Of a DNA stretch of 64,000 bases, positions 5,759 to 58,014 are shown piece by piece; within the stretch, counting starts at the first letter, position 1; each line of letters begins with the position of its first letter. Source of the DNA: Escherichia phage dw-ec; sequence record OL739525.1. One strand, written 5' to 3'. Below the pieces are notes generated by a model. It was not told where the DNA came from and made no database searches. It saw only the letters and a list, made by a program, of their open reading frames with translations. Made by a program: the position numbers and the translations under genes.

Positions 5759-8431
5759 ATGTTTCCAATTCCAATATTTACTATTATGACCAGCACTGGT
5801 GTCGTTCCTCTGCCAGCGGGTATTGTTAAAAAAGTAATCACTTTAGATTACCCAGATAATGCTGGTAATTCTAACAGCAGTTTAGCAATTTTGCTTAATG
5901 ATGGTAGATTGTTTACTCAAGGCGCAAACCTTTTTGGTGAGATTGCAGATGGAACTCGTAGTGCACGATTCAATAATTTCCACTTAGCTTCTACTGTAGT
6001 AGCGGATGTGTTTACCGCAGATCGTTGTTTTGTTATTAAAACTAACAGCGGGGGATGGCAATATTCAGGATTGACAGCAGGGTTGGTAGGATCTATAGCA
6101 GCAGGTGGTACGGATGCATGTGTAACTACTTGGACCAGCTTTCCATCTGTAATAACAGGGACTATCTCTTTAGCCAATCTTAAAGAGGTTAAAGGAGGGT
6201 ATAACAATACTCTTTGGTTAATGAATAGCGGTGTTCTTTATGGATCGGGTCAAAACACAGTAGGCAGTTTAGGTGCAAGCACTACTAACGAAGTTTCTAC
6301 TCCCCGTCAGATAACAAGTTCAGCAGTTGCTTTTGATGCAGGTTATAACCAATGCTCTTATGTCAACAATGCGGGAACCTTGCGTGTTTGTGGAGCTAGT
6401 AAAGGTTTAGCAGGTAATAATAACACAACAACCGCTTTTGTCAATGCCACGATATCCACTACTGAAACAGTGTATGTCAAAGATTACATCAATACAGTTT
6501 CCCAGACAATAGTTGTAGGAGATACCTCCGGTGGCGCGGGTACAGTAAACTACTTATATGTTAGATCTAATACAGAAACAACCTACACTAAACTGGACAC
6601 CTTTGCAGCAGGTTTCTCAACATGGAAATTTCCACCAAGCCGCCACTCTTTTTTCGTTGGGATCAATAATTCCTTGTGGGCTATTGGTAAGAACTACACT
6701 GCAAACTTAGGTTTGGGATATGATTCTGCGAGCGGAGATCCACTCCAAGTGGGAAAACCAGTTAAACCTGAAGGAGTGGGTTCCTGGGATATAAACAAGC
6801 TCACAAGCGTTCATACGTTGAATATGGATATTACTAACCAATTAGGTTATCAAGGAACCTTTTTCGTTTATAACGGGGATATGTATTATTCCGGTATTTG
6901 GAAAGATGGGAAAGCCTCGTATCTGTTCAATAGTGGTCTAAACTATAATAAATTCACACCAATAGCAAGCTCCGTGATTACGGGGGATGTTCTGGCAACT
7001 GGCTTAACTACAGATTCTTTAGGAATTTGTATTGTAGGTGGAACTAAACAGTTGACACATTCTGTTAGCCCAGAAGGAGGTAAACTTTTCAATATTAAAT
7101 ACACTTCTTCTGCCCCTGCAAACATGACAATATCATCTACTGGTTTAATGACTTTCCATGCAGAAGGTGGTTTTGATGCAGGTATGACAGCCTTAAACGC
7201 TGAAGGAACAACTTTATCAGATACCTCTGGAGGATATGCTTCAACATTGAGTGTTTACACCCCTAGCTTATCTGCGATGGATGTAGGAACAACACAAACA
7301 ATGGTAGCAGAAATAACGCCAACAGGAGCAGCAAGCTTACCTGGTATGGTTGTTGAGTATACAACTACAGATCCTAATGTTGCTACAGTAGATCCTACAA
7401 CTGGTGTAATAACTGGTGTTGGTGATGGTGGTTGTAGAATTGGTTGCACAGCTACATATCAAGGTGTTGTTACCGCTTCTGATAGTTCTTATTTAACGGT
7501 GAACGCTGTTGCGGGAAAGGAGTTAGCTCCATCTCCGAGTAGTAGTTTAACGGTTCTAAACGGATATTTCAACCACTCGGCAGATGGGGCAATTACGTTC
7601 CCAATTTTATCGGGTACTGTCACACCAGCTAACTTTGTAGTTAAGGTGGATGACGTTGTAATACCTTCAAATAAAGTAATATTTAGAAATAAAGCTTTCT
7701 CTACAGTGGATAGTTATCCAGCAGGAGAATATAGACTGGCTATTGAATTTGCAAGTGCTTCAGTAGTGAATAGTGTTGATGTGTCTATGGAAGCAAATCC
7801 AGATCTTTTAGAATTATGGGGCGGCAACAGAATTGGTTATTCTACAAGCCCAGCCTCACAATTCTTAAAAGGTTGTGCTAACTTAAGACGAATAACTTCT
7901 GATTGTTTTAGTAACACATCTTACACCGGAACATCTATAAGTGGTATCTTCTCTGGCTGTACAAGTTTGACAGCTATCCCTGAAGGATTATTCAGTGATG
8001 CTTTATTTCCTTCAATGACAACAATGTCAAGCACGTTTGAAGGTTGTACATCTTTAACATCTATTCCTTCAGATTTATTTAAAAATCTATCAAAAGTTAC
8101 AAGATATTCTTACACCTTTAAAGATTGCACCTCTCTTGCAGAAGTTCCAGCAGGAATGTTTGATAATATTCCAACGAAAGTGACCTCTTTAACAGCTACA
8201 TTCCAAGGTTGTTTAGCACTTACAGATTTTAATAAAATCTTTAATGACAACCCAGGGTTAACTGTTTGTGGTAAACGTGGAGCATTATCTTCTTTCTTTA
8301 GTGGATGCACAAATCTTACAGGAACAGGAACAACATTAACAAATACATTAGGCGGAGTAGCTAATAGTTACCTATTCAGGTATTGCACAAAACTTTCTGA
8401 TTATAACAATATTCCTTCGGGTTATAAATAA
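5759..8431 (+). CDS. tail fibre / adhesin with RCC1-like repeats, Big_2-like Ig domain and BspA-type leucine-rich repeats
   Basis: 890 aa; N-terminal G.N..G.LG repeats (RCC1-like); central segment resembling bacterial Ig-like group 2 domain (TQTMVAEITPTGAASLPGMVVEYTTTDPNVATVDPTTGVITGVGDGG); C-terminal repeats F.GCTSLT.IP..LF typical of LRR_5. Confidence 0.75.
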   Translation: MFPIPIFTIMTSTGVVPLPAGIVKKVITLDYPDNAGNSNSSLAILLNDGRLFTQGANLFGEIADGTRSARFNNFHLASTVVADVFTADRCFVIKTNSGGWQYSGLTAGLVGSIAAGGTDACVTTWTSFPSVITGTISLANLKEVKGGYNNTLWLMNSGVLYGSGQNTVGSLGASTTNEVSTPRQITSSAVAFDAGYNQCSYVNNAGTLRVCGASKGLAGNNNTTTAFVNATISTTETVYVKDYINTVSQTIVVGDTSGGAGTVNYLYVRSNTETTYTKLDTFAAGFSTWKFPPSRHSFFVGINNSLWAIGKNYTANLGLGYDSASGDPLQVGKPVKPEGVGSWDINKLTSVHTLNMDITNQLGYQGTFFVYNGDMYYSGIWKDGKASYLFNSGLNYNKFTPIASSVITGDVLATGLTTDSLGICIVGGTKQLTHSVSPEGGKLFNIKYTSSAPANMTISSTGLMTFHAEGGFDAGMTALNAEGTTLSDTSGGYASTLSVYTPSLSAMDVGTTQTMVAEITPTGAASLPGMVVEYTTTDPNVATVDPTTGVITGVGDGGCRIGCTATYQGVVTASDSSYLTVNAVAGKELAPSPSSSLTVLNGYFNHSADGAITFPILSGTVTPANFVVKVDDVVIPSNKVIFRNKAFSTVDSYPAGEYRLAIEFASASVVNSVDVSMEANPDLLELWGGNRIGYSTSPASQFLKGCANLRRITSDCFSNTSYTGTSISGIFSGCTSLTAIPEGLFSDALFPSMTTMSSTFEGCTSLTSIPSDLFKNLSKVTRYSYTFKDCTSLAEVPAGMFDNIPTKVTSLTATFQGCLALTDFNKIFNDNPGLTVCGKRGALSSFFSGCTNLTGTGTTLTNTLGGVANSYLFRYCTKLSDYNNIPSGYK

Positions 8432-8433
8432 GA

Positions 8434-8460
8434 AAAGGAGCCATTTGGCTCCTTTCTTTT
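8434..8460 (+). terminator. rho-independent terminator (possibly bidirectional)
   Basis: GGAGCC-attt-GGCTCC stem-loop followed by TTTCTTTT after stop of 5759..8431. Confidence 0.7.
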
Positions 8461-8497
8461 ATAAAGTTAACTCTTCCCATGTTCTTGTGCCGCTTCT

Positions 8498-8520
8498 GGG
8501 GGGCCCCCCCCCCCCCCCCC
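8498..8520. repeat. G6-C17 homopolymer tract
   Basis: GGGGGG followed by 17 consecutive C in the convergent intergenic gap between late and minus-strand blocks. Confidence 0.9.
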
Positions 8521-8535
8521 TATAGATCAATAAGA

Positions 8536-9423
8536 TCAGAATGGAATATCATCATCGAAGTCCATTGGAGGTTCTTCTTGATTACTTGGAGTTGGTTCTG
8601 GTTGTGGTTCAGGTTTTTTAACTTCTTTCTTCTCTTCTTTCTTAGGTTGTTCTGCGGAACCACGAATGGCAGCAGCAACTTTATCAGACAAAGCTAGAAC
8701 TTTACGAGCAGAGTCAATCAAATCTTCTACAGATACAGTCTTAATGGTATGGTCTTTACAAGCATTGAGGATAGCGTGACCAACAGATGCCCCAAGATCA
8801 TAATCATTAATGTCAACGCCACGAGATTCAGCAATTTCCGATTTCAGCGTGACAGTTGCAGATTGAACAACCCCAGCGATATCGAAAGCATCACCTTTAA
8901 CACCATTACGAATCAGTTCCAGTGCACCATTTACTGCGTGACCAGTTTCCAGACCTACAGTATCACGTTTTTTATAGGACTGCTTAGGAGCAGCATCGTT
9001 GGAACCTTTATTGCCAGAAGATTTGTTAGACTTCTGAACACCATCGGTAGACAATACTGTAATACGAGATTTTTTAGTATTGTAGTAAGTTTTACCGCCT
9101 TTATTATCAACGCGATCAATATCAATACTTACTTCTACACCTTTTTCAATAGTGATCCAATTATCACCTTCTTTGACTTGCAGGTTTTCATAACCTTCTT
9201 TCAGTTCAATGTCACCAAGAGAAATCCAAACACCTTTCTCATCTGGTTTAGCACCTTTCTCTTTCAGAACAAGAGAAGCTCGGTGAGTTGAAACAATCGT
9301 TTTTCCTTCCCAATGAAAAGTTTTAGGTTCAGCGAATTTATCCAGTTTAACGTAGTCTACGATACCAGTTGCATAAGTTACGGTTTTGCCTTTACGATCA
9401 GTTTCAGTATTAATTACGGACAT
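8536..9423 (-). CDS. putative ssDNA-binding protein carrying a host SSB-type C-terminal tip
   Basis: 295 aa, ATG with GAGGAG RBS; Lys/Pro/Glu-rich linker then C-terminal PPMDFDDDIPF, the same nine-residue tip as E. coli SSB; N-terminal domain not obviously E. coli-SSB-like. Confidence 0.55.
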   Translation of the reverse strand: MSVINTETDRKGKTVTYATGIVDYVKLDKFAEPKTFHWEGKTIVSTHRASLVLKEKGAKPDEKGVWISLGDIELKEGYENLQVKEGDNWITIEKGVEVSIDIDRVDNKGGKTYYNTKKSRITVLSTDGVQKSNKSSGNKGSNDAAPKQSYKKRDTVGLETGHAVNGALELIRNGVKGDAFDIAGVVQSATVTLKSEIAESRGVDINDYDLGASVGHAILNACKDHTIKTVSVEDLIDSARKVLALSDKVAAAIRGSAEQPKKEEKKEVKKPEPQPEPTPSNQEEPPMDFDDDIPF

Positions 9424-9439
9424 TATTATCTCCTCTACA

Positions 9440-9832
9440 TTACATTAATTTTGCACAGAAAGAGCGGAGTCTTTCCATATCATCTTGCTCTAACAGGTAT
9501 TTACCTTTACCTATTCCAACTCCAATTTCACCATTAGGGAAATGAACTATTTGCACTGGAAAACCTCCGAGTTTAATTGTGGCAGCTTTGCCTTCTTCGT
9601 CTATAACGTTTCGGATTGTATCTTGCAGTGAAATGAATTCTTTGTTTGTAACAGTGGTTTCAATTATTTCAGATGTTTCAACACGAGCAGTTAGCTTCTT
9701 GTTTCCACCTTGAATAACCAAAATTTGAAAATAAAAAGAGTTGTCAAGACCTACAACATTTTTCTCAACTAGTGTCAAACTGGTATAGTTTCCATAAACA
9801 GTTTCAACAGCTATCTTAGAACGTTCAGTCAT
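9440..9832 (-). CDS. hypothetical protein
   Basis: 130 aa ORF co-directional with replication block. Confidence 0.55.
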   Translation of the reverse strand: MTERSKIAVETVYGNYTSLTLVEKNVVGLDNSFYFQILVIQGGNKKLTARVETSEIIETTVTNKEFISLQDTIRNVIDEEGKAATIKLGGFPVQIVHFPNGEIGVGIGKGKYLLEQDDMERLRSFCAKLM

Positions 9833-9877
9833 TGAATGCTATCCTATCATAAAATGTTTAATATTGTCAAGCTTTAA

Positions 9878-10471
9878 TTACCAAGGAATATCCTCTTCTT
9901 CCAATCTGGTATCTACTTGAGGTGGACGTGGAACCTTAACCTCTTTCACAAAACGAAGATATGGGAAACGTGTAGCAATTTTAATAACGTGTTTGGCATC
10001 TTCTCTAACGTCTTTGTGCAAGAAGCAGATCCCTGTTTCCAAGGTTGTTTCAAAATCTTTAGAATAATAACAATCCTTCCCATCAAATGCAGCCTGGCAG
10101 ATGGACAGATCGAACTCATTTAGAAAGGTTGTCATTACGCTTGGTTCCATAATCATAAGGTTGCAAAGCTGACCATCACGTTCAAACTCAAAAACGTGTT
10201 TAAGACCAGTAACACCTTCATAATTGTCAGAAGCCTCTTTGTTTCCTAGTTTACGAATATTGGTTCCCATTAAAGCAGATGCAATTAATCCTTGTATTTG
10301 TTCTTCAGTCCGATGTGCAGGAAGGGATGTATAGAAATCAAGATCACGTCCAGCAATATCAAGAATACGCCAATCACGAACAGCACCGCCAGCCAAGACA
10401 GAATTAGGATCAGCGATCTTTAATACGGTAAGAATTTCTTTGGCAATATTGATTTGTTTTGATTTAGTCAT
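9878..10471 (-). CDS. nucleotidyltransferase-fold protein (pol-beta superfamily head domain-like) with acidic IPW C-terminus
   Basis: GGAVRDWRILDIAGRDLDFYT resembles the GGAVRD...DxD head motif of CCA-adding / poly(A) polymerase class II NTases; C-terminus EEEDIPW resembles SSB tip. Confidence 0.45.
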   Translation of the reverse strand: MTKSKQINIAKEILTVLKIADPNSVLAGGAVRDWRILDIAGRDLDFYTSLPAHRTEEQIQGLIASALMGTNIRKLGNKEASDNYEGVTGLKHVFEFERDGQLCNLMIMEPSVMTTFLNEFDLSICQAAFDGKDCYYSKDFETTLETGICFLHKDVREDAKHVIKIATRFPYLRFVKEVKVPRPPQVDTRLEEEDIPW

Positions 10472-10682
10472 TGATACGCTCCACAGTTACTTTTACAACA
10501 TCATCCATATTAATCTCATCCCCCAAGACCTCAATAACACCTTCCTCATAAAGTCGAGCACATTCTTCCCACACTTCAGCTTCCGTCATTCCACCTGCAA
10601 TCTTATTTGCAAGACCTTTAATAACATCTTCATTTTGTTCATCAACAAGAATTGAAACATTAAAGCTCACTAATTTACGCAT
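10464..10682 (-). CDS. hypothetical protein
   Basis: 72 aa acidic ORF, ATG preceded by GGAGAA. Confidence 0.5.
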   Translation of the reverse strand: MRKLVSFNVSILVDEQNEDVIKGLANKIAGGMTEAEVWEECARLYEEGVIEVLGDEINMDDVVKVTVERIND

Positions 10683-24869: not shown

Positions 24870-25066
24870 TACTCCTCCTCCTCATTGAAGTCAATATCTG
24901 CAAGGAGTTCGAATTTACGGAAGTTACGACAACCTTCATAAATATAACAATCACGACAAACTGCTAGAACACTTGGGGGATATATACCTCCCATCGGCGC
25001 GAATCGTTTTTCGTCATCATAACGGACACCAATGTCCTCATCAATTATATAGATACGGATTCTCAT
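24869..25066 (-). CDS. hypothetical Cys-containing protein
   Basis: 65 aa ORF (CRDC...C). Confidence 0.45.
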   Translation of the reverse strand: MRIRIYIIDEDIGVRYDDEKRFAPMGGIYPPSVLAVCRDCYIYEGCRNFRKFELLADIDFNEEEE

Positions 25067-26175
25067 TTACCAAGCCCTCGTTTCACAGCAGCTACCATCC
25101 CGTCTTCCAGAGATTGAACTTCATTAATATAATCAACACGAGCAGCACGGGCTTCCGTATTGATGCGGTTAGTTTCTTCCAACATCTTAACCAAGTTTTC
25201 CTGATCGTGACGCAGAGTTTCAATATCCAACACTTGACGGTTAGCCAGTGCTGCTGCTTCGATCTGATTCTGTGTGGCAAGATCGCTACCCAGTTTAATT
25301 GCCAGGTTAAATTCATCAAGAACGTTATTCTGCGTCTCTGCTGCTTTCATTTGACGTAAGCTCTCGATATACATTGAGAAGTTAGCAGAGTAAGCAGGAA
25401 TAACATTATTTACTATGTTACGCGCAGATCGCATTAAGCTTGCAGAAACTTTTTGCATACCTTGTACACGCGGTCCCATTTGGACACACAGTAGGCGCAA
25501 TGCTTTTAAATCTGCAATACGAATCTCCAGAAGATCCAAAGTATCTCGGATCACTTGTCGCTGTTCTACTGCATCTTCTGGAAGAGCAGCCAAAGCTTGT
25601 TCTTCTTTTTCATAGGTTGCTGTTAGAAGCTGCATATCTCGGTTCAAACTTGCAGCATATTGTCCAATAGCTTGATGTAGCTTTTCAAGATATACCAAGG
25701 AATCTTCTTCTTTGCGAATATCCATTTGAAGGTTCTTTACCAACTCTTCAATACGGTTATTAACATTATCAAACTCCCCGAACAGGTCTTCTTTCATACC
25801 CATAACTTTTTTAATGAGTTTAGTAATACCCTTGCTTTGTTTAATAGAGTTTGGATCAAGTTGTTTTGCCTGTTTAATCAAAGCTGTAAGTCGTTCACTC
25901 ATCTGATCGCCTTGATTACTACGTTGATGTTTTAACACCTCGGCATTCAAGGAACGCAAGGTTGTTCCTGCCTCTGCCCCAATCTCTTCAATCTCTTGTC
26001 GGGTCATAGAAGGCAAAACTGGAACTTCTTGCGGTGCCGCTGGTGCATAAACAGGACTGGCATCTAACACGCTTGGAGCGAATACAGATTTACTTGCATC
26101 TGTTGTTGCAGCGAATACACTCATTTCAGACTTCTTCTGACCACCAGTAGCTGCTTTTAAAAATGGACTTGTCAT
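25063..26175 (-). CDS. TelA-like (toxic anion resistance family) protein
   Basis: 370 aa, largely helical; LDPNS and DIETL segments resemble TelA/KlaA family; genomic context with TerD/TerC; needs HMM confirmation. Confidence 0.5.
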   Translation of the reverse strand: MTSPFLKAATGGQKKSEMSVFAATTDASKSVFAPSVLDASPVYAPAAPQEVPVLPSMTRQEIEEIGAEAGTTLRSLNAEVLKHQRSNQGDQMSERLTALIKQAKQLDPNSIKQSKGITKLIKKVMGMKEDLFGEFDNVNNRIEELVKNLQMDIRKEEDSLVYLEKLHQAIGQYAASLNRDMQLLTATYEKEEQALAALPEDAVEQRQVIRDTLDLLEIRIADLKALRLLCVQMGPRVQGMQKVSASLMRSARNIVNNVIPAYSANFSMYIESLRQMKAAETQNNVLDEFNLAIKLGSDLATQNQIEAAALANRQVLDIETLRHDQENLVKMLEETNRINTEARAARVDYINEVQSLEDGMVAAVKRGLGK

Positions 26176-26762
26176 TCTTCATTCTCCTCTTCTGCATCTC
26201 TTATATATGGTGAAACACCGTACTCTTTAGCTACTTTAACCCAATCATCCCATTTATACAACCATAATTTTCCTTCAGTTCCTTCTTTATCTGATTTCAA
26301 CCACATGTTAGGTTGCTTGCCTGGGTACATGCGATTAGGTTTACGATTATAACCTCTAACACATCTTGTCGCAAACCTATCTACCAGAACAAGAACATAT
26401 TTATACTCGTGGTTCAACGGCTCTTTGGAAGTGGCTTTAGGATTAGCCCCTAACTCTGCTGCCAGTTTTTGCCAATGAGCACCGTGCCTACTAAACTTAC
26501 CCATACAACCATCAATAGCGTGAGCAATTTCGTGCTTCATTGTATCCACGATCATATCTCTTGTAGAGTTCTTATGCAAGTGCCAATTTACAACAACAAT
26601 TTTATCTCGGTAGTTGCACCAACCGAAAGAGTTATTCACTTTGTTTCTAACACAAGCTTTATATCCTGCTTCACGTAACATGTTGTAGTAAACAGGAAAA
26701 TCTTCTTTTATTTCCTGCATCACTTCCCACCACAAGAGTTGCAAGTCTCTCTCGGTATGCAT
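26172..26762 (-). CDS. SprT-like zinc metallopeptidase-domain protein
   Basis: 196 aa; HEIAHAID (HExxH) within SprT-like context. Confidence 0.5.
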   Translation of the reverse strand: MHTERDLQLLWWEVMQEIKEDFPVYYNMLREAGYKACVRNKVNNSFGWCNYRDKIVVVNWHLHKNSTRDMIVDTMKHEIAHAIDGCMGKFSRHGAHWQKLAAELGANPKATSKEPLNHEYKYVLVLVDRFATRCVRGYNRKPNRMYPGKQPNMWLKSDKEGTEGKLWLYKWDDWVKVAKEYGVSPYIRDAEEENEE

Positions 26763-26764
26763 AC

Positions 26765-27358
26765 TTACACCTTAAAAGCGAAATGCGTGGTCGTGGCTTC
26801 AAAATCAGGGCCAGATAAACTTGCACTGAAATCTGAAATATTTGTAATTAAAAAGCTTTTATGCATACCTAACACAGCCACGCTTTCAATATCTTCTACT
26901 AACATTTCAATCATGTTAGAAACATGGCTGAACGTATAGTTTTGTTTTTTGATGGTGTAGAAAGAAAGACTCTCACCTGCTGTATAAGATACTTCTTCAA
27001 AATCTTTAATCGTATACTGTGTCCCATCAGTAAAGAAAATGGTAGCTTTATTAGTAGCACGTTTCTTGTTTTTTGGTCCTTTTTTACGTTTACTGCGAGT
27101 AGGCAAACCGTTTGGAAATACCGTAGCTACAAATTCTTCAGGAGAAACCTCCTTACCGAAATCATAACCGTAAGAAACAGCGTCTATAAACTCGTCGTCT
27201 TCATTTTTAAAATAATGAAAATAGGGCCAATTTGAGAGATTATCGAGCATCTTATGCTCATCCACAGCAGAGAACGTATCCCTCAAAGCACGTGTGATTT
27301 GCAAAGCATTAGGCAAACTTTTAACACCTGTAATGGAAGTACGGATAGAAATTGTCAT
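26765..27358 (-). CDS. hypothetical protein
   Basis: 197 aa ORF. Confidence 0.55.
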   Translation of the reverse strand: MTISIRTSITGVKSLPNALQITRALRDTFSAVDEHKMLDNLSNWPYFHYFKNEDDEFIDAVSYGYDFGKEVSPEEFVATVFPNGLPTRSKRKKGPKNKKRATNKATIFFTDGTQYTIKDFEEVSYTAGESLSFYTIKKQNYTFSHVSNMIEMLVEDIESVAVLGMHKSFLITNISDFSASLSGPDFEATTTHFAFKV

Positions 27359-27372
27359 TGTTTTTCTCCTTA

Positions 27373-27810
27373 TTAACGTCGCTTGCTACGAGATGAACTC
27401 TTTTTACTTAAAGGGCTATTGTAAGATTTACGAGTTGTATAGCTACTATTTGTTTTAAAAGTTTGTCTCGGCTTTTCATAAGTTTTTATCTCTTGTTTAG
27501 GCTTACCATAAAAATTAGTTTTCGGTTTAGGTGTATTATAATGCTTATTAATAATCGTTCTGTTATCGTTATAATCCCCACTGCTACGATTACTACCGCC
27601 ACTCATCATATGCCCTAACAACATACCTGTAGCAAACTCACCAACACCGCTACTACTAGAACCGCCACCATTGTTGATAATAGTTGTATCTCCGTCAGAT
27701 CCTTGTTGAGCGTATTGTTGAGGAGGTTGTTGGTATTGTGCAGGATTTGTTTCATCCTCGCAAGCTGTTAAAAAGATACAACCAATTAAAATCAGGGCTA
27801 GTTTTTTCAT
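27373..27810 (-). CDS. lipoprotein (candidate superinfection-exclusion protein)
   Basis: Internal ATG at 27810 with GAGGAA RBS; lipobox MKKLALILIGCIFLTAC; Gly/Ser-rich middle, basic tail. Confidence 0.55.
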   Translation of the reverse strand: MKKLALILIGCIFLTACEDETNPAQYQQPPQQYAQQGSDGDTTIINNGGGSSSSGVGEFATGMLLGHMMSGGSNRSSGDYNDNRTIINKHYNTPKPKTNFYGKPKQEIKTYEKPRQTFKTNSSYTTRKSYNSPLSKKSSSRSKRR

Positions 27811-27997
27811 ATTTGCTTTCCTCGTTTTGGCTATTAATACATCTGTGTTTGAAATCTCCAGAGAAGCAATAAAGTTGCTCTCCATCTCGGTATAAACTCA
27901 CTTTACTGCCGTTGATTACGCTTGTCAATACAAAAATTACAACAAACAACCCTATTGCAAAACAGATATTTTCAAACACAACCAACAAGTATTTCAT
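27752..27997 (-). CDS. hypothetical membrane protein
   Basis: 81 aa; one N-terminal TM helix; C-terminal part overlaps lipoprotein gene start so 3' extent uncertain. Confidence 0.4.
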   Translation of the reverse strand: MKYLLVVFENICFAIGLFVVIFVLTSVINGSKVSLYRDGEQLYCFSGDFKHRCINSQNEESKYEKTSPDFNWLYLFNSLRG

Positions 27998-28344
27998 TTT
28001 AAAAATACCTCATCATCAGTTTCATTATCCCAGAAGAACAAATCCCAACCATTCGGATCATTCCATTTGGCTGCTGGAGAAGTCCATATTTGTTCAATAT
28101 CAATATTCAAAACTTCACCGTTTCGTTTTGAAACAGCTTTAGTTAATTCCCAACGAGATACAGGCTCTACTTCTCCTGAACCACTTCCACAACAAGCTAC
28201 CACATTAGGAGGCAAATTAATCGGATCTTTGGTCACAATCATAACGCTTACCCCAGGGTAAACTTTTGAAAGATAATCTGAAATGTAATCCACATCACCA
28301 GGTAAATCCCAAACAAGTTCTTGAATTTCATCAAAATTATTCAT
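27994..28344 (-). CDS. hypothetical acidic protein
   Basis: 116 aa ORF downstream of terC terminator. Confidence 0.55.
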   Translation of the reverse strand: MNNFDEIQELVWDLPGDVDYISDYLSKVYPGVSVMIVTKDPINLPPNVVACCGSGSGEVEPVSRWELTKAVSKRNGEVLNIDIEQIWTSPAAKWNDPNGWDLFFWDNETDDEVFLK

Positions 28345-28361
28345 AAGTCTCTCCTATAAAA

Positions 28362-28384
28362 TAGCCTCCCGAAGGAGGCTCATC
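28362..28384 (-). terminator. rho-independent terminator
   Basis: GCCUCC-uucg-GGAGGC stem-loop with U-rich tail on minus strand after terC-like gene. Confidence 0.6.
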
Positions 28385-28386
28385 TA

Positions 28387-29361
28387 TTAAATAGCAGCTT
28401 CTTCTTTTTCAGGGAAGATAAAGCTTGCAATAACACCAAGAGCTAATGTGCCTAGAACAATCATCAGACTTACGTTAGGGGAAATATCATGCGGGAGGAA
28501 TGACCACTTGGCATGAAGTGTTTCACCGAACGGGTGGTACATAAGTTTAGCACCAACAAACACCAGAACCACAGCAACAGCTTTCTCTAAGTGAACCAGA
28601 TATTTCACAGCTACACTCAACACAAAGAAAAGTGCACGTAAACCAAGAACAGCCATCAGCATTGCAGAATAAACTAGCAGAGGTTCTTGTGTCACACCGA
28701 TCACAGCCGGAACTGAATCAAAAGAGAAGACAATATCTGTAAGCTCAATAACAAACACACAAAGAAGAGCAGGAGTTGCATATTTAATACCATTCTTAAT
28801 GGTGATGAACTTTTCACCATCCAGTGCATTGTGCACAGGCAGAACTTTACCTACTAAACGAACAGCCCAATGCTTAGAGTAATCAATATCCTCTTCTTCG
28901 TCACCACCTTTGATGATAGCCACGGCAGACCAAGCTACAATCAAACCGAACAACACTTGGACCGACCAATGAAGGTTAAACAAAGCGGTCCCTGCTGCAA
29001 CAAAAATACCTCGGAAGACAATGGCTCCTGCAATCCCCCAAAGTAGAATCTTATGTTGGAGATGTGTGCTCTTAATTCCAAAGCTTGCAAAAATCGCCAT
29101 GAACACCATCAGGTTATCTACAGAAAGACTCTTTTCCAACACATAGCCACTTAGGAAAAGCGCGGCAAACTCTTTACCATGTTCTACCCAAATGAATGCG
29201 TAATATCCTAAAGCTAAAGCAATCCAAAAAACAGACCAAAGCAAAGCAGATTTAATTCCAATTTCTTTATTCTCTTTATGACCAAAGAAATCGATACCAA
29301 TAGACAATGCCAAAATACCAACTAAAACAACTACATCAATAATTGGGAAACCGAGTTGCAT
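28387..29361 (-). CDS. terC: TerC-family integral membrane protein
   Basis: 324 aa multi-pass membrane protein; SLSVDNLMVF and ELTDIVFSFDSVPAVIGVTQEP motifs typical of TerC/Alx family. Confidence 0.8.
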   Translation of the reverse strand: MQLGFPIIDVVVLVGILALSIGIDFFGHKENKEIGIKSALLWSVFWIALALGYYAFIWVEHGKEFAALFLSGYVLEKSLSVDNLMVFMAIFASFGIKSTHLQHKILLWGIAGAIVFRGIFVAAGTALFNLHWSVQVLFGLIVAWSAVAIIKGGDEEEDIDYSKHWAVRLVGKVLPVHNALDGEKFITIKNGIKYATPALLCVFVIELTDIVFSFDSVPAVIGVTQEPLLVYSAMLMAVLGLRALFFVLSVAVKYLVHLEKAVAVVLVFVGAKLMYHPFGETLHAKWSFLPHDISPNVSLMIVLGTLALGVIASFIFPEKEEAAI

Positions 29362-29378
29362 TCTTTTCTCCTCTCTTT

Positions 29379-29437
29379 GCGGGGAACTATTCCCCGCTTC
29401 ATGTGATATATCTTACTCTTTTTAAGAACTATGTCAA
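29379..29437 (-). promoter_or_regulatory. promoter-leader cassette on minus strand (TTGACA-16-TAAGAT + GCGGGGAA-tag-TTCCCCGC stem-loop) driving terC
   Basis: Same -35/-10/hairpin/AAAGAGAGG leader architecture as the plus-strand early cassettes, here upstream of 28387..29361. Confidence 0.6.
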
Positions 29438-29440
29438 CAC

Positions 29441-29662
29441 TTATTTTGTTGAATGAGAGGAAAAGATTCCTCGTAATACCGCCAGAATAAACGAAACACA
29501 AACCACGGTCCAGAAGGTTACTGGGACAGTGATATCTGCATGACCCATAACTTCAGCAACATAGTTGTAAGCCAGCAACAGTAACCAAGCTGGAATCAAA
29601 CTAAGCATAAAAGCAATAACAAAAAAGCTTACCACTGCAACAATACCTGCAAAAACACCCAT
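29441..29662 (-). CDS. small membrane protein (2 TM helices)
   Basis: 73 aa hydrophobic ORF. Confidence 0.5.
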   Translation of the reverse strand: MGVFAGIVAVVSFFVIAFMLSLIPAWLLLLAYNYVAEVMGHADITVPVTFWTVVCVSFILAVLRGIFSSHSTK

Positions 29663-29674
29663 ACTAATCTCCTC

Positions 29675-30148
29675 TTAAAGTTTATAAATAGTCACATCGT
29701 GACCTGTTTTTACTAAAGTTTCTTCAATCATCACTTGGATGATAGCCCAATTACCTCCAGCATATCCAGCGCCAATCATAGGTAAGCCGATCTTACATTT
29801 TTGGTCACGGAGAAGCAAATCATTAGCCATAGCTATTAGTGCATCGTAAAGTGCATCATAGTCCAACTGACGACCTTTAGCATTGTATCCATAACGGTAT
29901 TGCCCGTATAGATTATATACCAAAGGGTCTGATTGTTCGTCTGGCACCCCTAAACTAAAACAACCTAGTTTACTTTGATCACCAGCCATTGTGTCTAAGT
30001 CTGCTGCATATGCGTAAGGAAATGCTTGTTTGATTTGTGGGGCAATACCTGCCCCCATATTACACATACAGTTGCAACAATGAGCAATAACAGTTACTTC
30101 ACCTGCTTTAGCGGCATCAATAAGATTACCTCTTTTCATTTTAAGCAT
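29675..30148 (-). CDS. macro domain-like protein (ADP-ribose processing)
   Basis: Internal ATG at 30148 with AAGGAG RBS; G.LIDA...VIAHCCNCMCNMGAGIA and later IGLPMIGAGYAGG resemble macro-domain Gly-rich loops. Confidence 0.5.
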   Translation of the reverse strand: MLKMKRGNLIDAAKAGEVTVIAHCCNCMCNMGAGIAPQIKQAFPYAYAADLDTMAGDQSKLGCFSLGVPDEQSDPLVYNLYGQYRYGYNAKGRQLDYDALYDALIAMANDLLLRDQKCKIGLPMIGAGYAGGNWAIIQVMIEETLVKTGHDVTIYKL

Positions 30149-30161
30149 TTTTAGCTCCTTA

Positions 30162-30989
30162 TTACAGAATGTGTTGTTTTGTGTAACGATCCAAGAATTC
30201 AAAGTTTTCAGCATACTTTGAAATTCGGTTGTAACCTTCTCCCAAACATCCAAAGAAAAGTTGCTCTACATAGTAATGTGGCAATTGGCTAAGAATGATT
30301 TTGAAGTCTTCATGATTTTGGCCCATAAGATACTTAATAGGACGAACAAGACACTGTGCATCACGTTCTTCATTAATCATTTTAACAAACGCTTCTGGTG
30401 TATTAATGTAGTTAAAATTCAGTTTAGCTTCGGTATCTGCTTGATTACCTTCGTATTTTGCAAAATACAAGAAGTAAACATCATTTTTAACTTGATTTTC
30501 ATCAAGGATCTCAATCAGTTTGTCTTCATGCGTTCCAGTGATATTTACATCATCAATGAATACAAGCTTCTTATCACCCCAGAATTCTTTGTTGCAGTAG
30601 AATGTATCCCCATCAATAAGTTTCTTACGACTAGCTTTATCCAAGAAACCATAATCGTTGATATAGCTAACTTTACGATGAATAATGTCCAGTTCTGCTG
30701 AACGACCTTGATCATATTGTGATTGCAACATATTAAAATAATTAATAAAATGATCTGTCATCATTGTTGCAGCATTATGCACATGGTTATAAGGAGAAGG
30801 AATGATAACAAATTGTTCCCCAATATGTTTCATTGCCACTTGAGCAAAAAACTGAAGTGCCAATTCTTTACCCATACGACGCGCAGCTTGGTTACTACCA
30901 AATTTCAATTTTGAATAATCTTGGATATCAAAAGTAGCAGTTTCCAGGTCATCAAATTTATTTGCAAAAATTTGAGTTTGATTACGCAT
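30162..30989 (-). CDS. phosphoribosyltransferase-like protein (type I PRTase PRPP motif)
   Basis: 275 aa; LVFIDDVNITGTH matches hhhhDDhxxTGxT PRPP-binding loop; GAGGAGA RBS. Confidence 0.55.
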   Translation of the reverse strand: MRNQTQIFANKFDDLETATFDIQDYSKLKFGSNQAARRMGKELALQFFAQVAMKHIGEQFVIIPSPYNHVHNAATMMTDHFINYFNMLQSQYDQGRSAELDIIHRKVSYINDYGFLDKASRKKLIDGDTFYCNKEFWGDKKLVFIDDVNITGTHEDKLIEILDENQVKNDVYFLYFAKYEGNQADTEAKLNFNYINTPEAFVKMINEERDAQCLVRPIKYLMGQNHEDFKIILSQLPHYYVEQLFFGCLGEGYNRISKYAENFEFLDRYTKQHIL

Positions 30990-31638
30990 TTACAATTTCT
31001 CCTCTTTTAAGTTTCTCTAGTAAGTCGTTAGGGTTCTTAATATGACAGAAGTTAAATCCTAAGTCAACACATTTTCCATCATATTCTTCACTATCACCTA
31101 CATGCAACACTTCGTGCCCTAACAGAGGGATCGGAGAATACGTGAGCGTGCGAGCAAAGAATCGCGGATCTGGTTTACAAAGTAAAGCTTCATCCGAGAA
31201 ATGGGTGAACTCAAAACAATTCCAACTATCAAACTTACAAGCACGACGCAGGATATCCCCTGATATGAAGTTGGTATTGCTCTTAATACTCAAATCATAA
31301 CGCCCCGAAAGATACAGCAAGTACATCGGCAGATCCACGGCTACGTGTGGTGGAAACTTAAGGAACCACTGTTCACACTCGAAACGAAGCTTTGCAGACT
31401 TCCAAGGCGTTATCCCAAGTTCAGAACCAAGTCTTTCCCAGGCGTATGCTGCACACTCGGCTTTGCCTTGAAGTGCTGCATTATCCAGTTCCTTTTTGAT
31501 CTTTTTATAAGCTGCTCTTGCTTCCACTTCCGTAATATCTCCATATTTTGCGATAGTCCAGGCTCGCATGTCTGCGTAATTGGAGTTTGCTGTGATCAGT
31601 GTGTTCCATACATCAAAAGAGATATGTTTAATAGTCAT
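30982..31638 (-). CDS. HAD-superfamily hydrolase
   Basis: 218 aa; motif I FDVWNTLI and motif IV-like HVGDSEEYD. Confidence 0.55.
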   Translation of the reverse strand: MTIKHISFDVWNTLITANSNYADMRAWTIAKYGDITEVEARAAYKKIKKELDNAALQGKAECAAYAWERLGSELGITPWKSAKLRFECEQWFLKFPPHVAVDLPMYLLYLSGRYDLSIKSNTNFISGDILRRACKFDSWNCFEFTHFSDEALLCKPDPRFFARTLTYSPIPLLGHEVLHVGDSEEYDGKCVDLGFNFCHIKNPNDLLEKLKRGEIVNA

Positions 31639-31639
31639 A

Positions 31640-32245
31640 TTAAGCCCACCATGCGTCTAAGTTAAGATTACTGTCCACTACCACTTGTTCTATGTGGTAG
31701 CCTTTTATCTGTATCCCACTATTCAAGAGCATATCATACGCTTCATTGAAACGCAACTTATCTTCTGCGGAATATAAGCGAGCATTATAAAATCGGTAAT
31801 CAACTTCTTCAGCATTAGAAGAAATACGGAAGAAGTTTGTTTCTACTTCGGGATCACTTGCTGAAGTCTTAATGTGAACTTCTCCGTAATTTTCTTTACT
31901 TAGATCCATGAAAAGAACACAGGCAACATGTTTAAACATTCGTTCCAGCTTGTAACGAACAACATTGAAACCTGCATTCTCAAGTTTTTCTACACACTGC
32001 AACATTAAAGTAGTGTCGAGATCGCTTTGATACTTTGTTAACATACGATCACGTTGAGACTTTGTATCCCGATGTAAATCAATTGTTGTGCATTTGGCAC
32101 CAATAATCTTAGCTGCTTTCATCAACTCTTCAGAACTAACGTTAGATAAAGTAAGATGAAAATGGGCTTTCCACACTTTTTTAGCAGGGACACCAAAAGA
32201 TTTATCCCCACTATTCGGCATGTTGACTACTACACTATGTTGCAT
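31640..32245 (-). CDS. 2H phosphoesterase-family protein (LigT/CPDase-like)
   Basis: 201 aa; two H-x-T motifs (HLTL, HIKT) ~95 residues apart. Confidence 0.45.
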   Translation of the reverse strand: MQHSVVVNMPNSGDKSFGVPAKKVWKAHFHLTLSNVSSEELMKAAKIIGAKCTTIDLHRDTKSQRDRMLTKYQSDLDTTLMLQCVEKLENAGFNVVRYKLERMFKHVACVLFMDLSKENYGEVHIKTSASDPEVETNFFRISSNAEEVDYRFYNARLYSAEDKLRFNEAYDMLLNSGIQIKGYHIEQVVVDSNLNLDAWWA

Positions 32246-32260
32246 TACTTATCTCCTCAC

Positions 32261-32452
32261 TTAAAATGGAAGTCTTTGAAGTTCATCTCCTCCGATATCA
32301 AGTAATTTAGCAACATCTCGATCAGAAAGCAACTCTTTTCTTTGTAAAATATCCACAAGGGTTGCAAGAATATCCTTAACGTCCCGATCACTGTTCTTCA
32401 AAAGTTCTCCTGCCGTCCCTACTCTATCTCCTACAGCAAAATATGTAACCAT
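32261..32452 (-). CDS. hypothetical small protein
   Basis: Internal ATG at 32452 with AGGAGG RBS. Confidence 0.45.
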   Translation of the reverse strand: MVTYFAVGDRVGTAGELLKNSDRDVKDILATLVDILQRKELLSDRDVAKLLDIGGDELQRLPF

Positions 32453-32465
32453 AAAACCTCCTAAG

Positions 32466-32936
32466 TTAATCTGATTGCCAACCACTTGCCGTTTTGGTCC
32501 ATAATCTTTGATTATCTGACCCTCTGAAAGGTTTTGTAGTTGGATTGTTTATTTCATACTTTCCGTCTACAATAATGTCAACAAGATTTTTAATATACAA
32601 AGGCACTTCCTCAAAAGTATATCCTGTATACACCATTATATCTTTGCTTGACCCATAAACGTCTCTAACCTTTTCTATAAGGTTTTTAACATTGTAAATA
32701 TTCTGCGGATCTAATGGCTCTCCTCCTAAAATTGTTAAACCTTTTACAAACGGTCTTGACAAATCTTTTAAAACTTGCTCTACATTTTCGTGAGTGAACG
32801 GTTTCCCATAAGAATAAGACCAGGCTTTTTGGTTAAAACAGCCACGACAACCGTGGCTACAACCACTAACCCAGAGGGAGCACCTAACTCCCTCACCATT
32901 AATAAGATCTACAGGTTCATATCCTGCAAAATTCAA
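32466..32936 (-). CDS. nrdG: anaerobic ribonucleotide reductase activating protein (radical SAM)
   Basis: 156 aa; CSHGCRGC radical-SAM cysteine cluster; TTG start overlapping nrdD stop. Confidence 0.85.
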   Translation of the reverse strand: MNFAGYEPVDLINGEGVRCSLWVSGCSHGCRGCFNQKAWSYSYGKPFTHENVEQVLKDLSRPFVKGLTILGGEPLDPQNIYNVKNLIEKVRDVYGSSKDIMVYTGYTFEEVPLYIKNLVDIIVDGKYEINNPTTKPFRGSDNQRLWTKTASGWQSD

Positions 32937-34747
32937 AGATGTTTCTCCCTTTGCAAAACTTCCTGCATTTTACCTTTGTTGTAAGGCCGTGAATTAGGGG
33001 CAGAAAGATACCCTGATACACGTCTAACTACAGAAATAGTTTCTTCTTCATGGTTGCCACAATCAGGACACTCAAACCCTTTAGCCGTTGCCTTAAATTC
33101 TCCATGAAAACCACACTTAAAGCATTGATCCACGGGCTGATTAATACCAAAATAGTGAATATGTTCATAAGCGTAGTCTACTAAAGTCTCCAAAGCTTCT
33201 AAGTTATTCTTTAAGTTTGGTGTTTCGACATAACTTATGTTACCACCATTGCTAATCTGTGCAAAACCTGCTTCATAATCCCATTTTTCAAAAGGATTTG
33301 TTACCAACCATACAGGTTGGTGAAAAGAGTTGGTAAGATAGTCTCTTTCTACCAAACCTGGGTATTTTTCATTTAAAGCTGTTGCAAACTTATAACACAA
33401 GGATTCTGCTGGAGTTCCATAGAGACTAAACGCCAACTTAGATCGTTCTTTAAACACAGCACACACATCTTTCATATGTTGCAGAATGCTTTTACCAAGT
33501 TCCTTTTTATCTTTTTCTTCTGGATAAAGGATTTCCAAAGCTTCGGCAAGACCTACATAACCAATACTAATAGAAGCATAACCACCTTCAAACAAAACAC
33601 CAATTTCATCATTGGCATTTAAACGCGCTAAAGCCCCTTCCATGAAAAGAATAGGGTTTTCAGATGCTTTGGTATGTCTGATACGGTTTACACGTAACAT
33701 GTGAGCATCGTAGGCTATCTCCATATGTTTATTAAGAAGATCGGTGAAAGATTCTCCTTTACTTCTCGCTTCCGCAGCGATCAGAGGTAAGTTGATAGAA
33801 ACTACTCCAAGGTTGAATCGTCCATCGTATTTTTCTCCTTGTTCGGTGGCATAGTACGACAAAAAGGAACGACAACCCATACTCGTAACAGTGCCATCTG
33901 CTGATCCCGTAACTTCTTTGTTCAAAGGAACAGAAATAAAATCTGGATAAATACGATCAGCACAACATGCCAAAGCTTGTTGCTTAAGGTCATAGTTAGG
34001 ATCACTAGGTTTCATGTTAACACCTTCTTGTAAAAAGAAAATAACTTTAGGGAATACAGGTGTTACATGATCTTTGCCTAGACCGTTACTATGAACTTTA
34101 AGATAGTTAGCTGTGATCATTCTGCCAAAAACAGAGGTATCCAGACCCATACTGATTGTAATAAAAGGAGATTGTCCATTAACACTCATTAAAGTATTAA
34201 CCTGATACAAGAGAGTTTGCATAGCATCATATACATCTTGTTCGGTCATTTCTAGTGCTTCTTTCCTTGCATAACAACCGTAGCGACGTTTGGTTATCTC
34301 CATGTTTTTAAGGAAACTAGCTTCAACATAAGGACTAAGACCTTTATCAATGTGCGCACACGTCTGACCTCCATACTGACTGGAGGCAACAGCTTGGATG
34401 ATTTGAGTTAGCACTGTGGTAGCTACCCCAATAGATTTTGGTTTTTCTATCTGTGCGGCTCCGATCTTAAAGCCATTCTCTAACATATCTTGATAATTAA
34501 CAAGACAACAGTTTGTAAGAGGAGAGAGTAGATAATCTAAGTCGTGAATATGTCCAAAACCTTCTGTATGCCATTCTGACAAGTTTTTTGGCAGTATCTG
34601 TGTCATTGCCATATGTTTGCTTAAAATCCCCGCCAAGAGATCCCTATGCGTGTTAACGAGGTGGGAAGGTTTGTTTGCATTCTCTCTAGTGTATGTTTCT
34701 GAAGTGCGATCTAAAAAAGAAAAAACATCTTGGTACAAATCTTTCAT
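32933..34747 (-). CDS. nrdD: anaerobic ribonucleoside-triphosphate reductase (class III)
   Basis: 604 aa; C-terminal zinc ribbon (CFKCG...CPDCG) and glycyl-radical motif RRVSGYL. Confidence 0.9.
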   Translation of the reverse strand: MKDLYQDVFSFLDRTSETYTRENANKPSHLVNTHRDLLAGILSKHMAMTQILPKNLSEWHTEGFGHIHDLDYLLSPLTNCCLVNYQDMLENGFKIGAAQIEKPKSIGVATTVLTQIIQAVASSQYGGQTCAHIDKGLSPYVEASFLKNMEITKRRYGCYARKEALEMTEQDVYDAMQTLLYQVNTLMSVNGQSPFITISMGLDTSVFGRMITANYLKVHSNGLGKDHVTPVFPKVIFFLQEGVNMKPSDPNYDLKQQALACCADRIYPDFISVPLNKEVTGSADGTVTSMGCRSFLSYYATEQGEKYDGRFNLGVVSINLPLIAAEARSKGESFTDLLNKHMEIAYDAHMLRVNRIRHTKASENPILFMEGALARLNANDEIGVLFEGGYASISIGYVGLAEALEILYPEEKDKKELGKSILQHMKDVCAVFKERSKLAFSLYGTPAESLCYKFATALNEKYPGLVERDYLTNSFHQPVWLVTNPFEKWDYEAGFAQISNGGNISYVETPNLKNNLEALETLVDYAYEHIHYFGINQPVDQCFKCGFHGEFKATAKGFECPDCGNHEEETISVVRRVSGYLSAPNSRPYNKGKMQEVLQREKHL

Positions 34748-50850: not shown

Positions 50851-51098
50851 CGCGCAGGGGCGGTGTTTGTCTCGCGCTCCCGTGTCCCCTCGCCATGTAA
50901 TAAGAATAACAGATCCAGCCAGGAAAGCAAGCGATTATTTTATCTTTACATTTCTTTACAAATATATAGCGCCCAGCCTACCGGCGATCAACCTTCCAAC
51001 CAGCGCCCTGGTATGTTAGCCCCGCCTTTACGCCGTGGGGTGGCGCTTCCTCTTCTGTATGTAAAACAGTATAAGCCCGATCCCTGGGCTTGTCAAGA

Positions 51099-51365
51099 TT
51101 ATTTTTTGTTTTCTTGCCAGGATAGGACACCTAACCAAAAATACATATCGCCCCGCGCCCCTGGTGGTATCTTGCTTTCCCCGCCGCCACTGCAAGCCCA
51201 TAGATAACCATTTGCGAACGTATCAAAATGATCTATCTCTTCCACCTTATGATCGCCCAGGTTGAGAACGGTTTCAACCTTTAAGCCCGTTGCGCTTGCT
51301 ACCTGGTGCACCGTGCCGCCTTGCCAGCCCAATGAGTGCATAAGGTGTAATGTAGTAGTTGTCAT
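51099..51365 (-). CDS. hypothetical protein in GC-rich island
   Basis: 88 aa ORF with protein-like composition; surrounding 50860..51560 noticeably GC-richer than the rest of the window. Confidence 0.4.
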   Translation of the reverse strand: MTTTTLHLMHSLGWQGGTVHQVASATGLKVETVLNLGDHKVEEIDHFDTFANGYLWACSGGGESKIPPGARGDMYFWLGVLSWQENKK

Positions 51366-51474
51366 GGTGTCGCCCTTTCTTTGTTGTGCGCCCTGGTTGG
51401 CGCGGTAGAAAGATGATAGCCTTTTCCTTTATATATAGCAAGCAAAAAGAAAATAAAAAAGATTGAAAAAGTGG

Positions 51475-51503
51475 TTGACGTTCCTCACCTGGTAGCGTAG
51501 TAT
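51475..51503 (+). promoter_or_regulatory. sigma70-like promoter (TTGACG-17-TAGTAT)
   Basis: Upstream of 51639..51836. Confidence 0.4.
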
Positions 51504-51638
51504 TCATCTTGTCGAGGGGGGCGCGGCACAACGACAATAAAAAACAGGAGGGCGCAATGTAGGACGGGCAAAGGTGAGGATCTCCATAATCCACCGTCAA
51601 CCAACAAAAAACATCATTCATCACCTGGAGTTAAAATC

Positions 51639-51836
51639 ATGGCAACATTGCACATAGTAGCGAAAGCAGGACAAATCAGCGTCGTGGTAAACGGTTTTAC
51701 TGAGTTCAGTCATCCCCAGGATGATCATGAAACGGTTTTATCTTTCATTGATTCACTGTTAGAAATGGGAGTAATTACAGAAGACCAGCACGCTACAAAA
51801 TGCAAACGCGTTAATCAGATTGCAGGAATAGAATAA
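51639..51836 (+). CDS. hypothetical protein
   Basis: 65 aa ORF. Confidence 0.5.
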   Translation: MATLHIVAKAGQISVVVNGFTEFSHPQDDHETVLSFIDSLLEMGVITEDQHATKCKRVNQIAGIE

Positions 51837-51842
51837 AAAGTA

Positions 51843-51904
51843 TTGACAACAACCAACAACCTGATAAGATGTATCACATAGGGCGGCGGAATGGTCCACC
51901 GCTC
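51843..51904 (+). promoter_or_regulatory. promoter-leader cassette P1 (TTGACA-16-TAAGAT + leader stem-loop)
   Basis: -35 51843..51848, -10 51865..51870, then GTATCACATAGGGCGGCGGAATGGTCCACCGCTC hairpin and AGAAGAGAG leader. Confidence 0.7.
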
Positions 51905-51927
51905 ACAACAGAAGAGAGATTATAATC

Positions 51928-52200: not shown

Positions 52201-52203
52201 GGC

Positions 52204-52259: not shown

Positions 52260-52276
52260 ATTTGTAAGGTGGTAGA

Positions 52277-52534: not shown

Positions 52535-52535
52535 T

Positions 52536-58013: not shown

Positions 58014-58014
58014 T

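Follow-up and report, generated by a model that had tools for sequence, protein, structure and literature searches.

Through covariance modelling, shuffled-sequence controls and comparison with related phages, we show that the terC gene of Escherichia phage dw-ec (OL739525.1) is directly preceded by a promoter–hairpin cassette that belongs to the same family as the cassettes heading the small ORFs of the phage's early array. We consider it rather probable that this is an extra early-gene cassette, akin to the PeSL cassettes of T4-type phages, which gives terC a sigma-70 unit of its own. An earlier note on the window, as we call the 64,000-nt stretch of DNA analysed throughout, had read TTGACA-16-TAAGAT followed by a hairpin on the minus strand in front of terC, and this reading proves correct to the base.

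Results

A 3-kb query around the terC cassette is 99.3% identical to Escherichia phage ETEC-TG and has matches along most of its length in 68 further records, which are almost exclusively Phapecoctavirus; judged by its sequence, the window belongs to this genus of the Stephanstirmvirinae, the phAPEC8-like myoviruses of ~150 kb. Its first 51 kb are mostly minus-strand, the exception being a short plus-strand gene block ahead of the array, and the minus-strand genes include those for DNA polymerase, primase/helicase, glycosyltransferases, endolysin, TelA, TerC, a ComF-like PRTase, NrdD/NrdG and a helicase; the plus-strand array of small ORFs starts at ~51.8 kb. The terC gene sits among the nucleotide-metabolism and replication genes of the minus strand, in agreement with the placement of the cassette inside a replication block by the earlier note. 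Upstream of it, the genes from nrdD to a 73-aa ORF are tightly packed, and no convincing terminator was found between 34.8 kb and the terC cassette. Within 25063–34747 (−) the early cassette is present before terC only, and the neighbours of terC over this interval (Table 1) presumably recall Ter-type stress or nucleoside-metabolite clusters; Ter systems were reportedly treated by Anantharaman, Iyer and Aravind in 2012. Where the minus-strand block meets the plus-strand array lies a divergent promoter region (51045–51108 (−) and 51831–51921 (+)), whose minus-strand promoter (51045–51108) has the form TTGACA-17-TATACT with a palindromic spacer, AGCCCAGGGATCGGGCT.

Table 1. The terC cassette, the terC gene with its closing hairpin, and neighbouring genes, in window coordinates
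Feature	Position	Strand	Remarks
A-rich stretch caacaaaataagtg, 5′ of −35	29438..29452	−	UP-element-like; aaTAAAAA context shared with array copies
TAA stop of upstream 73-aa ORF	29443-29441	−	inside the A-rich stretch, 3 nt before −35
−35, TTGACA	29432..29437	−	perfect consensus
−10, TAAGAT	29410..29415	−	spacer 16 nt; same hexamer in array copies 51843, 53281 and 54789
Initial-transcribed motif ATATCACATGAA	29398..29409	−	conserved; family consensus GTWTYACRTAG (alignments)
Predicted transcription start	29402	−	A, with C at −1
Leader hairpin GCGGGGAA-tag-TTCCCCGC	29379..29397	−	8 bp; −14.6 kcal/mol; from fold and covariation
Shine–Dalgarno AGGAG	29368..29372	−	6 nt before ATG; kept in all lineages
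terC ATG	29361	−	
terC	28387..29361	−	324 aa; TerC-family integral membrane protein; PF03741
Terminator-like hairpin AGCCTCC-TTCG-GGAGGCT, then ATTTTAT	28353..28380	−	starts 7 nt past the terC stop
TelA	25063-26175	−	PF05816
SprT-like	26172-26762	−	
Macro-like/phosphatase ORF	start near 30148	−	
ComF-like PRTase_3	30162-30989	−	PF15610
HAD-like hydrolase	30982-31638	−	followed by NrdG, NrdD

At the terC cassette the minus strand reads gtgTTGACAtagttcttaaaaagagTAAGATatatcacatgaaGCGGGGAAtagTTCCCCGCaaagagAGGAGaaaagaATG, laid out as gtgTTGACA-tagttcttaaaaagag-TAAGAT-atatcacatgaa-GCGGGGAAtagTTCCCCGC-aaagagAGGAGaaaaga-ATG and spanning 29437–29359 (−) from the −35 element through the ATG. Since the stop of the 73-aa ORF falls so close to the −35, the whole 79-nt gap between the two genes is cassette. 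The promoter, preceded by AT-rich caacaaaataag, matches the consensus at 10 of 12 positions, the −10 alone at 4 of 6, and the hairpin begins 12 nt after the −10. In the window the composite TTGACA-N15-18-TAAGAT-N5-20-GCGGGG occurs once, against 0.00 expected from 100 shuffles, and the looser TTGACA-N15-18-TANNNT occurs 32 times against 4.9 expected, a six-fold enrichment; the terC hairpin itself folds with z = −3.8, a stability equalled by 2 of 200 shuffles. A conserved C–R step at positions 7–8 after the −10 is in line with the start-site rule, by which transcription begins 7–8 nt past the −10, on a purine (+1) that follows a pyrimidine (−1), and the start probably lies at the conserved C–A step 8 nt past the −10 (A 29402).

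The early array holds 16 plus-strand cassette copies between 51843 and 61198, and no fewer than 20 different ORFs have the cassette in front of them. Common to the array copies are an A-rich stretch, TTGACA, a spacer of 16–17 nt, a −10 of the form TAnnnT, a GTATCACATAG-like motif, a GC hairpin of 7–10 bp, an A/G-rich Shine–Dalgarno sequence and an ATG, with the hairpin starting 8–12 nt after the −10 (mostly 10–11, about 10–12 in nearly all, 8 in one). A covariance model was trained on these 16 array cassettes only, with the terC copy excluded and the structure set by hand, and the whole window was scanned with filters off. The model matches the terC copy over its full length (1–88/88) at 29361–29449 (−) with 60.3 bits (E = 6.4e-11), a score that lies inside the range of the seed members and equals or exceeds that of three of them. 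It is the only strong match outside 51.8–61.3 kb, the next best outside the array reaching 20.7 bits. Primary sequence agrees, in that the terC cassette shares a median identity of 53% with the array copies, compared with 57% (range 42–75%) among the array copies themselves, and the claim that both belong to one family is thereby upheld.

The complete genome of ETEC-TG yields 21 array copies (record 984–10520, plus strand), a terC copy of 60.7 bits, which is the sole strong copy outside the array, and one weak match of 27 bits. The latter is a diverged unit after the thymidylate synthase gene at record ~51.2 kb, beyond the window (locus 1187–1276 (−)), and consists of TTGACT-17-TATAAT, 13 nt, TGGGAGGA-ggtgag-TCCTCCCA, a Shine–Dalgarno sequence and an ATG. 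Within the array, the copies at 55395, 57133 and 59878 (+) have a weakened −35 (TTG-CA or TTGATC) with the GGCGGCAATGGTGCCGC-type hairpin intact. Two identical 21-nt terminator-like hairpins of bidirectional form (56622–56642 and 62529–62549 (+); AAGGGCGCACCAAGCGCCCTT then TCTTTTT) suggest that the array may be split into a few transcription blocks.

The downstream gene is a genuine TerC, as had been claimed: the ORF matches PF03741 with 138.3 bits against a cutoff of 27.8 (E = 3e-40), relatives' records label the gene TerC, Alx or membrane protein, and TerC occurs in 174 phage records. The UUCG-loop hairpin past its stop (hairpin portion 28380–28363, with the T-run after it) is kept elsewhere with compensatory changes, as AACCTCC..GGAGGTT and AGCCCC..GGGGCT. 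The Shine–Dalgarno sequence of the next gene lies within ~10 nt after this hairpin. By its features, namely its own promoter (29437–29410) and its own downstream terminator-like hairpin, terC is a moron-like unit, and because the UUCG-loop hairpin follows directly on the stop and is conserved across lineages, we regard terC as a promoter–gene–terminator unit. Morons proper are autonomous units of this composition, defined in temperate phages and expressed from the prophage. Like them, terC is an accessory gene with a promoter and terminator of its own amid a larger co-directional block; unlike them, it is carried by a virulent phage and its promoter belongs to the phage's own early class.

The stem of the terC-leader hairpin changes from lineage to lineage (GCGGGGAA, GCGGGGA, GCGGAGGA, AAGAGGGGG, AAGAGGGAG and AAGGGAGAG), in ZCKP1 by a paired insertion (GCGGGGGG..CCCCCGC), yet it pairs in every lineage, and the downstream leader segments fold at −14 to −18 kcal/mol. 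Because the stem sequences differ and still pair, the paired insertion included, we conclude that the hairpin structure is under selection. In alignments that are model-fitted, hence biased towards structure, and with which independent per-sequence folds agree, 91.4% of cells are paired among 31 cassettes of all kinds, with compensatory changes at 7 of 8 pairs, and 90% among the 10 terC-linked copies, with a covariation of 0.558 versus 0.25. None of 500 shuffles reached the observed percentage paired or covariation score in either set, and slid controls gave 34–65% and 40–57%, respectively. MAFFT with RNAalifold on the raw cassettes gave a poor register owing to stem indels, and the hand-set structure and model-based alignments were used. 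The loop, R-A-T-N-G, is constant even in copies whose stems have changed.

We reject an intrinsic terminator as the identity of the leader hairpin, which lacks a U-tract: the terC hairpin is followed by AAAGAGAGG and is missing from the lists of terminator-like sites, and among the cassette hairpins none passes the test for a following U-tract and none is terminator-like on its own strand. The array has separate terminator-like sites at 56622, 61030 and 62529. Bacterial TerC-family genes such as alx are controlled by the yybP–ykoY Mn2+ riboswitch, which the phage leader resembles as a structured 5′ leader before a TerC-family gene. Unlike that riboswitch, however, the terC leader is only ~45 nt long with a single hairpin, and an Rfam scan of 27500–30500 gave no match at E ≤ 1, yybP–ykoY included, which together argue that it is not a riboswitch. 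Rfam models scanned over 51000–64000 returned nothing relevant; the one weak match, unrelated to the cassettes, is to the mir-1305 precursor at 63895–64000 (+) (28.8 bits against a gathering threshold of 63, E = 0.048) and is almost certainly due to chance.

That the inverted repeat acts in DNA instead, as the operator of a dimeric repressor that turns off early promoters or as a cruciform or hairpin promoter for a phage polymerase, we regard as very unlikely. Folding energies are no different on the sense and antisense strands (15 versus 8 copies, p = 0.29), so that wobble pairs do not separate an RNA from a DNA element, and this lack of strand asymmetry would suit a DNA site, as would its overlap with ~+4 to +30, where protein binding would stop the elongating polymerase, and the designation of the array 20-mer GTAGGGCGGCAATGGTGCCG as a putative promoter ('PHIRE promoter') in the phAPEC8 record. 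PHIRE, for its part, reports repeated 20-mers only. Moreover, within a single phage the half-sites of the terC cassette are not those of the array copies, and conservation is highest in the asymmetric centre, the opposite of what a symmetric operator would lead one to expect, which makes a symmetric double-stranded operator unlikely; by annotation, no phage RNA polymerase is among the listed features of the whole ETEC-TG genome. Hairpin promoters of the N4 type were likewise dropped, no virion polymerase being present and a sigma-70 promoter standing in front of the hairpin, as was lambda nut/boxB, whose loop is different and for which no boxA-like sequence was noticed on reading the cassette. 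A resemblance to the lambda operator half-site TATCAC was judged coincidental.

Outside the window, the cassette stands before terC in Phapecoctavirus (including phAPEC8, phiWec190 and ZCKP1), in Justusliebigvirus (pEC-M2929 and PaulScherrer), in Klebsiella phage phi1_175008 and in four IMG/VR contigs, and its region is at least 99% identical (99–100%) in 42 Phapecoctavirus records. In Klebsiella phage FBKp34, whose TerC protein is 87.6% identical, terC has a Shine–Dalgarno sequence only, without the cassette, and the terC genes of Grimontviridae abut the preceding ORF, also without it. The FBKp34 locus (540–600), where terC starts with GTG 28 nt after a small ORF, provides a natural cassette-less comparison. 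The ORF directly upstream of terC varies among lineages. Just upstream of the terC cassette of phi1_175008 (3100–3215 (−)) are an extra terminator hairpin, a TTGACT-16-TAAACT promoter and a different 80-aa ORF.

This distribution bears on whether the terC cassette might be a chance resemblance or a dead relic, with terC expressed only within the upstream operon, a reading to which we give almost no credence. The tightly packed genes from nrdD to the 73-aa ORF, with no convincing terminator before terC, would accord with it, as would FBKp34, which does without the cassette. A covariance E-value of 6e-11, a 79-nt gap kept from genus to genus, in which changes are compensatory and an insertion is paired, and near-complete identity of the cassette region in the 42 records all speak against it.

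Further afield, the covariance model matches Vequintavirus slur16 with up to 62 bits, Certrevirus (P7_Pc) with 25–29 bits, and the 348-kb Escherichia phage SHEFM2K in five copies within 3 kb, at 32–49 bits and with the hairpin GCGGGGGAATAGTTCTCCCGC. The array ORFs of slur16 are 81–98% identical to ORFs of the window, and the seven SHEFM2K ORFs are all without a homologue, both in the window and in the searched three-quarters of the ETEC-TG genome. At SHEFM2K locus 78–2013 the design of promoter, GTWTYACRTAG and hairpin precedes small ORFs.

The cassette had further been described as a portable module, and this description holds in part. Its heading of at least 20 ORFs, the terC genes that lack it in FBKp34 and Grimontviridae, the varying ORF upstream of terC with the added unit of phi1_175008, and the non-homologous ORFs of SHEFM2K are in keeping with portability; the terC copy, on the other hand, is found in several genera with diverged stems of its own, is not homogenised with the array, and the single exchange that could be mapped, in phage tuntematon, has its joints outside the cassette. 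We reject concerted evolution of the terC hairpin with its own genome's array, since the arrays of phi1_175008 and Justusliebigvirus keep GGCGG-type stems, as do those of all genera examined, while their terC stems differ. Comparison of tuntematon (NC_052660.1) with window 27787–29961 shows flanks, cassette included, that are 99–100% identical, and a terC segment from ~+50 to +930 that is 55–83% identical to the window and 84–98% like Justusliebigvirus. This pattern indicates allele exchange between genera via homologous recombination within conserved ORF ends, and with the crossovers in the ends of the terC ORF, the cassette is rejected as the recombination joint in tuntematon. Because the terC copy is common to several genera and has diverged independently of the arrays, a recent move is argued against; as far as sequence comparison can tell, the copy is old and vertically inherited.

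Discussion

The promoter half of the terC cassette is already annotated, and the design is a known kind of phage regulatory cassette. In the record of the type phage phAPEC8 (JX561091.1; Tsonos et al. 2012), the gene for 'integral membrane protein TerC' has directly upstream of it a 'putative host dependent promoter determined with MEME', and the array hairpin 20-mer is labelled 'putative promoter determined with PHIRE' at 556–575, 937–956, 1787–1806 and 3202–3221, right after MEME sigma-70 promoters. Unlike the present analysis, that record leaves the terC hairpin unannotated and does not treat promoter and hairpin as one unit; its PHIRE label probably misinterprets what is the leader hairpin belonging to the preceding sigma-70 promoter. 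The rV5 paper lists sigma-70 promoters only, and in the literature on this phage group we found neither a description of the combined cassette or its hairpin nor data on transcript 5′ ends, timing or half-lives.

The closest parallel is provided by the PeSL cassettes of the T4-type phages RB49/phi1, PST and nt-1 (Arbiol et al. 2010, PMC2839356; Comeau et al. 2014, PMC4122927). Both have an upstream stop, an AT-rich stretch, a near-consensus sigma-70 early promoter, a stem-loop, and a Shine–Dalgarno sequence with ATG (PMC2839356); both have a stable hairpin whose 5′ arm is rich in G and whose 3′ arm is rich in C; and both are repeated before many small early ORFans, with occasional lone copies by accessory genes in conserved blocks. 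In contrast to PeSL, the terC cassette belongs to a phage of the Stephanstirmvirinae, which is not T4-like, and its hairpin, like all those of its family, is 3′ of the −10 and transcribed, whereas PeSL stem-loops lie mostly between or over the −35 and −10. Nor does the present family have a U-tract, and no sign of cassette-to-cassette recombination or mini-circles was found. The PeSL stem-loop has been treated as a terminator of upstream transcription, and only a rare fifth class is downstream of the −10 (PMC2839356).

A PeSL function in the full sense, in which the stem-loop attenuates or blocks incoming transcription and isolates units and the cassette is a recombination linker that shuffles genes, seems to us distinctly unlikely here. 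The identity of architecture, down to the G-run/C-run stem-loop (PMC2839356), would favour it, together with the variable ORF upstream of terC, the extra promoter unit at that place in phi1_175008 and the cassette-less terC of FBKp34. However, an efficient terminator placed 3′ of the −10 of its own promoter would cut short the very transcripts that this promoter starts, the U-tract is missing, the exchange joints of tuntematon are inside the terC ORF, and the terC copy has not been homogenised with the array.

We favour a PeSL-like cassette in design, one that serves as an extra early-gene unit for terC. The A-rich upstream region and the near-consensus sigma-70 promoter would recruit unmodified host RNA polymerase, and the message would begin with ~5 unpaired nt in the case of terC (~3 in most array copies), continue through the 8-bp GC hairpin and a short linker rich in A and G to AGGAG and the start codon of terC, and be closed past the stop by the UUCG-loop terminator within the long co-directional gene block. 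TerC could then be produced from the first minutes of infection alongside the array genes, and later terC mRNA would probably arise also by read-through from upstream genes. The coupling of terC to early timing asserted by the earlier note is plausible. Two features of the promoter weigh against our reading, the −10 with only four of six consensus positions and the spacer of 16 nt, as does the fact that read-through could supply terC mRNA.

The hairpin most likely acts in the RNA, as a 5′-proximal guard against 5′-end-dependent decay (RppH, RNase E), and it would also shield the ribosome-binding site from upstream context. We suggest the stabilising role because a stable hairpin near the predicted 5′ end has the geometry of known mRNA 5′ stabilisers. 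Such 5′-terminal stabilising stem-loops of bacterial mRNAs, of the ompA 5′ UTR type, were reportedly described by Emory, Bouvet and Belasco in 1992. As in the ompA type, a stable hairpin here lies a few nucleotides from the predicted 5′ end and upstream of an accessible Shine–Dalgarno sequence; unlike that type, the 5′ end is a predicted one (3 nt from the hairpin in the array, 5 nt in terC), and the loop and leader are conserved in sequence. A hairpin of this protective kind goes with no more than about 2–4 unpaired nt before it at the 5′ terminus of the RNA; with 5 nt predicted to be single-stranded, the terC leader is at or past the limit usually quoted.

The constancy of the loop (R-A-U-N-G in RNA) and of the pre-hairpin motif across phage groups suggests specific recognition over passive structure. 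On that basis, the hairpin and the motif before it might be the binding site of a phage or host protein that times the early class, with terC enrolled in it, for instance by shutting off early messages at the level of translation or transcription, or by protecting them selectively during host mRNA destruction. We hold this to be possible but doubtful. It would explain why the R-A-T-N-G loop and the GTWTYACRTAG leader stay constant while stems drift, and why the same leader and hairpin recur in Vequintavirus, Certrevirus and the 348-kb phage, there with non-homologous downstream ORFs; the hairpin, moreover, marks a subset of genes, being absent from the other strong sigma-70-type promoters of the minus-strand block (43731, 41653, 22518 and 14995). 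Conversely, no candidate binding protein was identified, the conservation across groups may reflect shared ancestry or exchange of early genes, as the close similarity of the slur16 ORFs illustrates, and the stem sequence is clearly not what is read, the terC and array stems of one phage being wholly different.

In its broader form, the same idea would make the leader, that is, GTWTYACRTAG with the G-rich hairpin and its loop, a cis-acting RNA signal specifically recognised by some factor of the host or the phage, for which we see an outside chance of similar size. The leader does head early genes in Stephanstirmvirinae, Vequintavirinae and the 348-kb jumbo coliphage, where the ORFs are unrelated. 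Were it such a signal, immediate-early messages would be marked for protection in phage-induced mRNA decay or for timed shut-off, and terC would be enrolled in an early regulon that extends across phages, which would suggest that TerC has a function during the first minutes of infection.

Under the reading that we prefer, of an additional PeSL-like early cassette, current understanding is not changed in any major way, the terC cassette being a regulatory cassette of an ordinary kind. Its family nevertheless shows that PeSL-like cassettes are not confined to T4-like phages, and that a cassette with a transcribed hairpin at a fixed position occurs in large enterobacterial phages of at least three other groups. 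For the biology of Phapecoctavirus and its relatives, our analysis predicts that the accessory membrane protein TerC can be produced from a unit of its own as soon as infection begins, a prediction that would narrow the hypotheses on what purpose TerC serves in phages.
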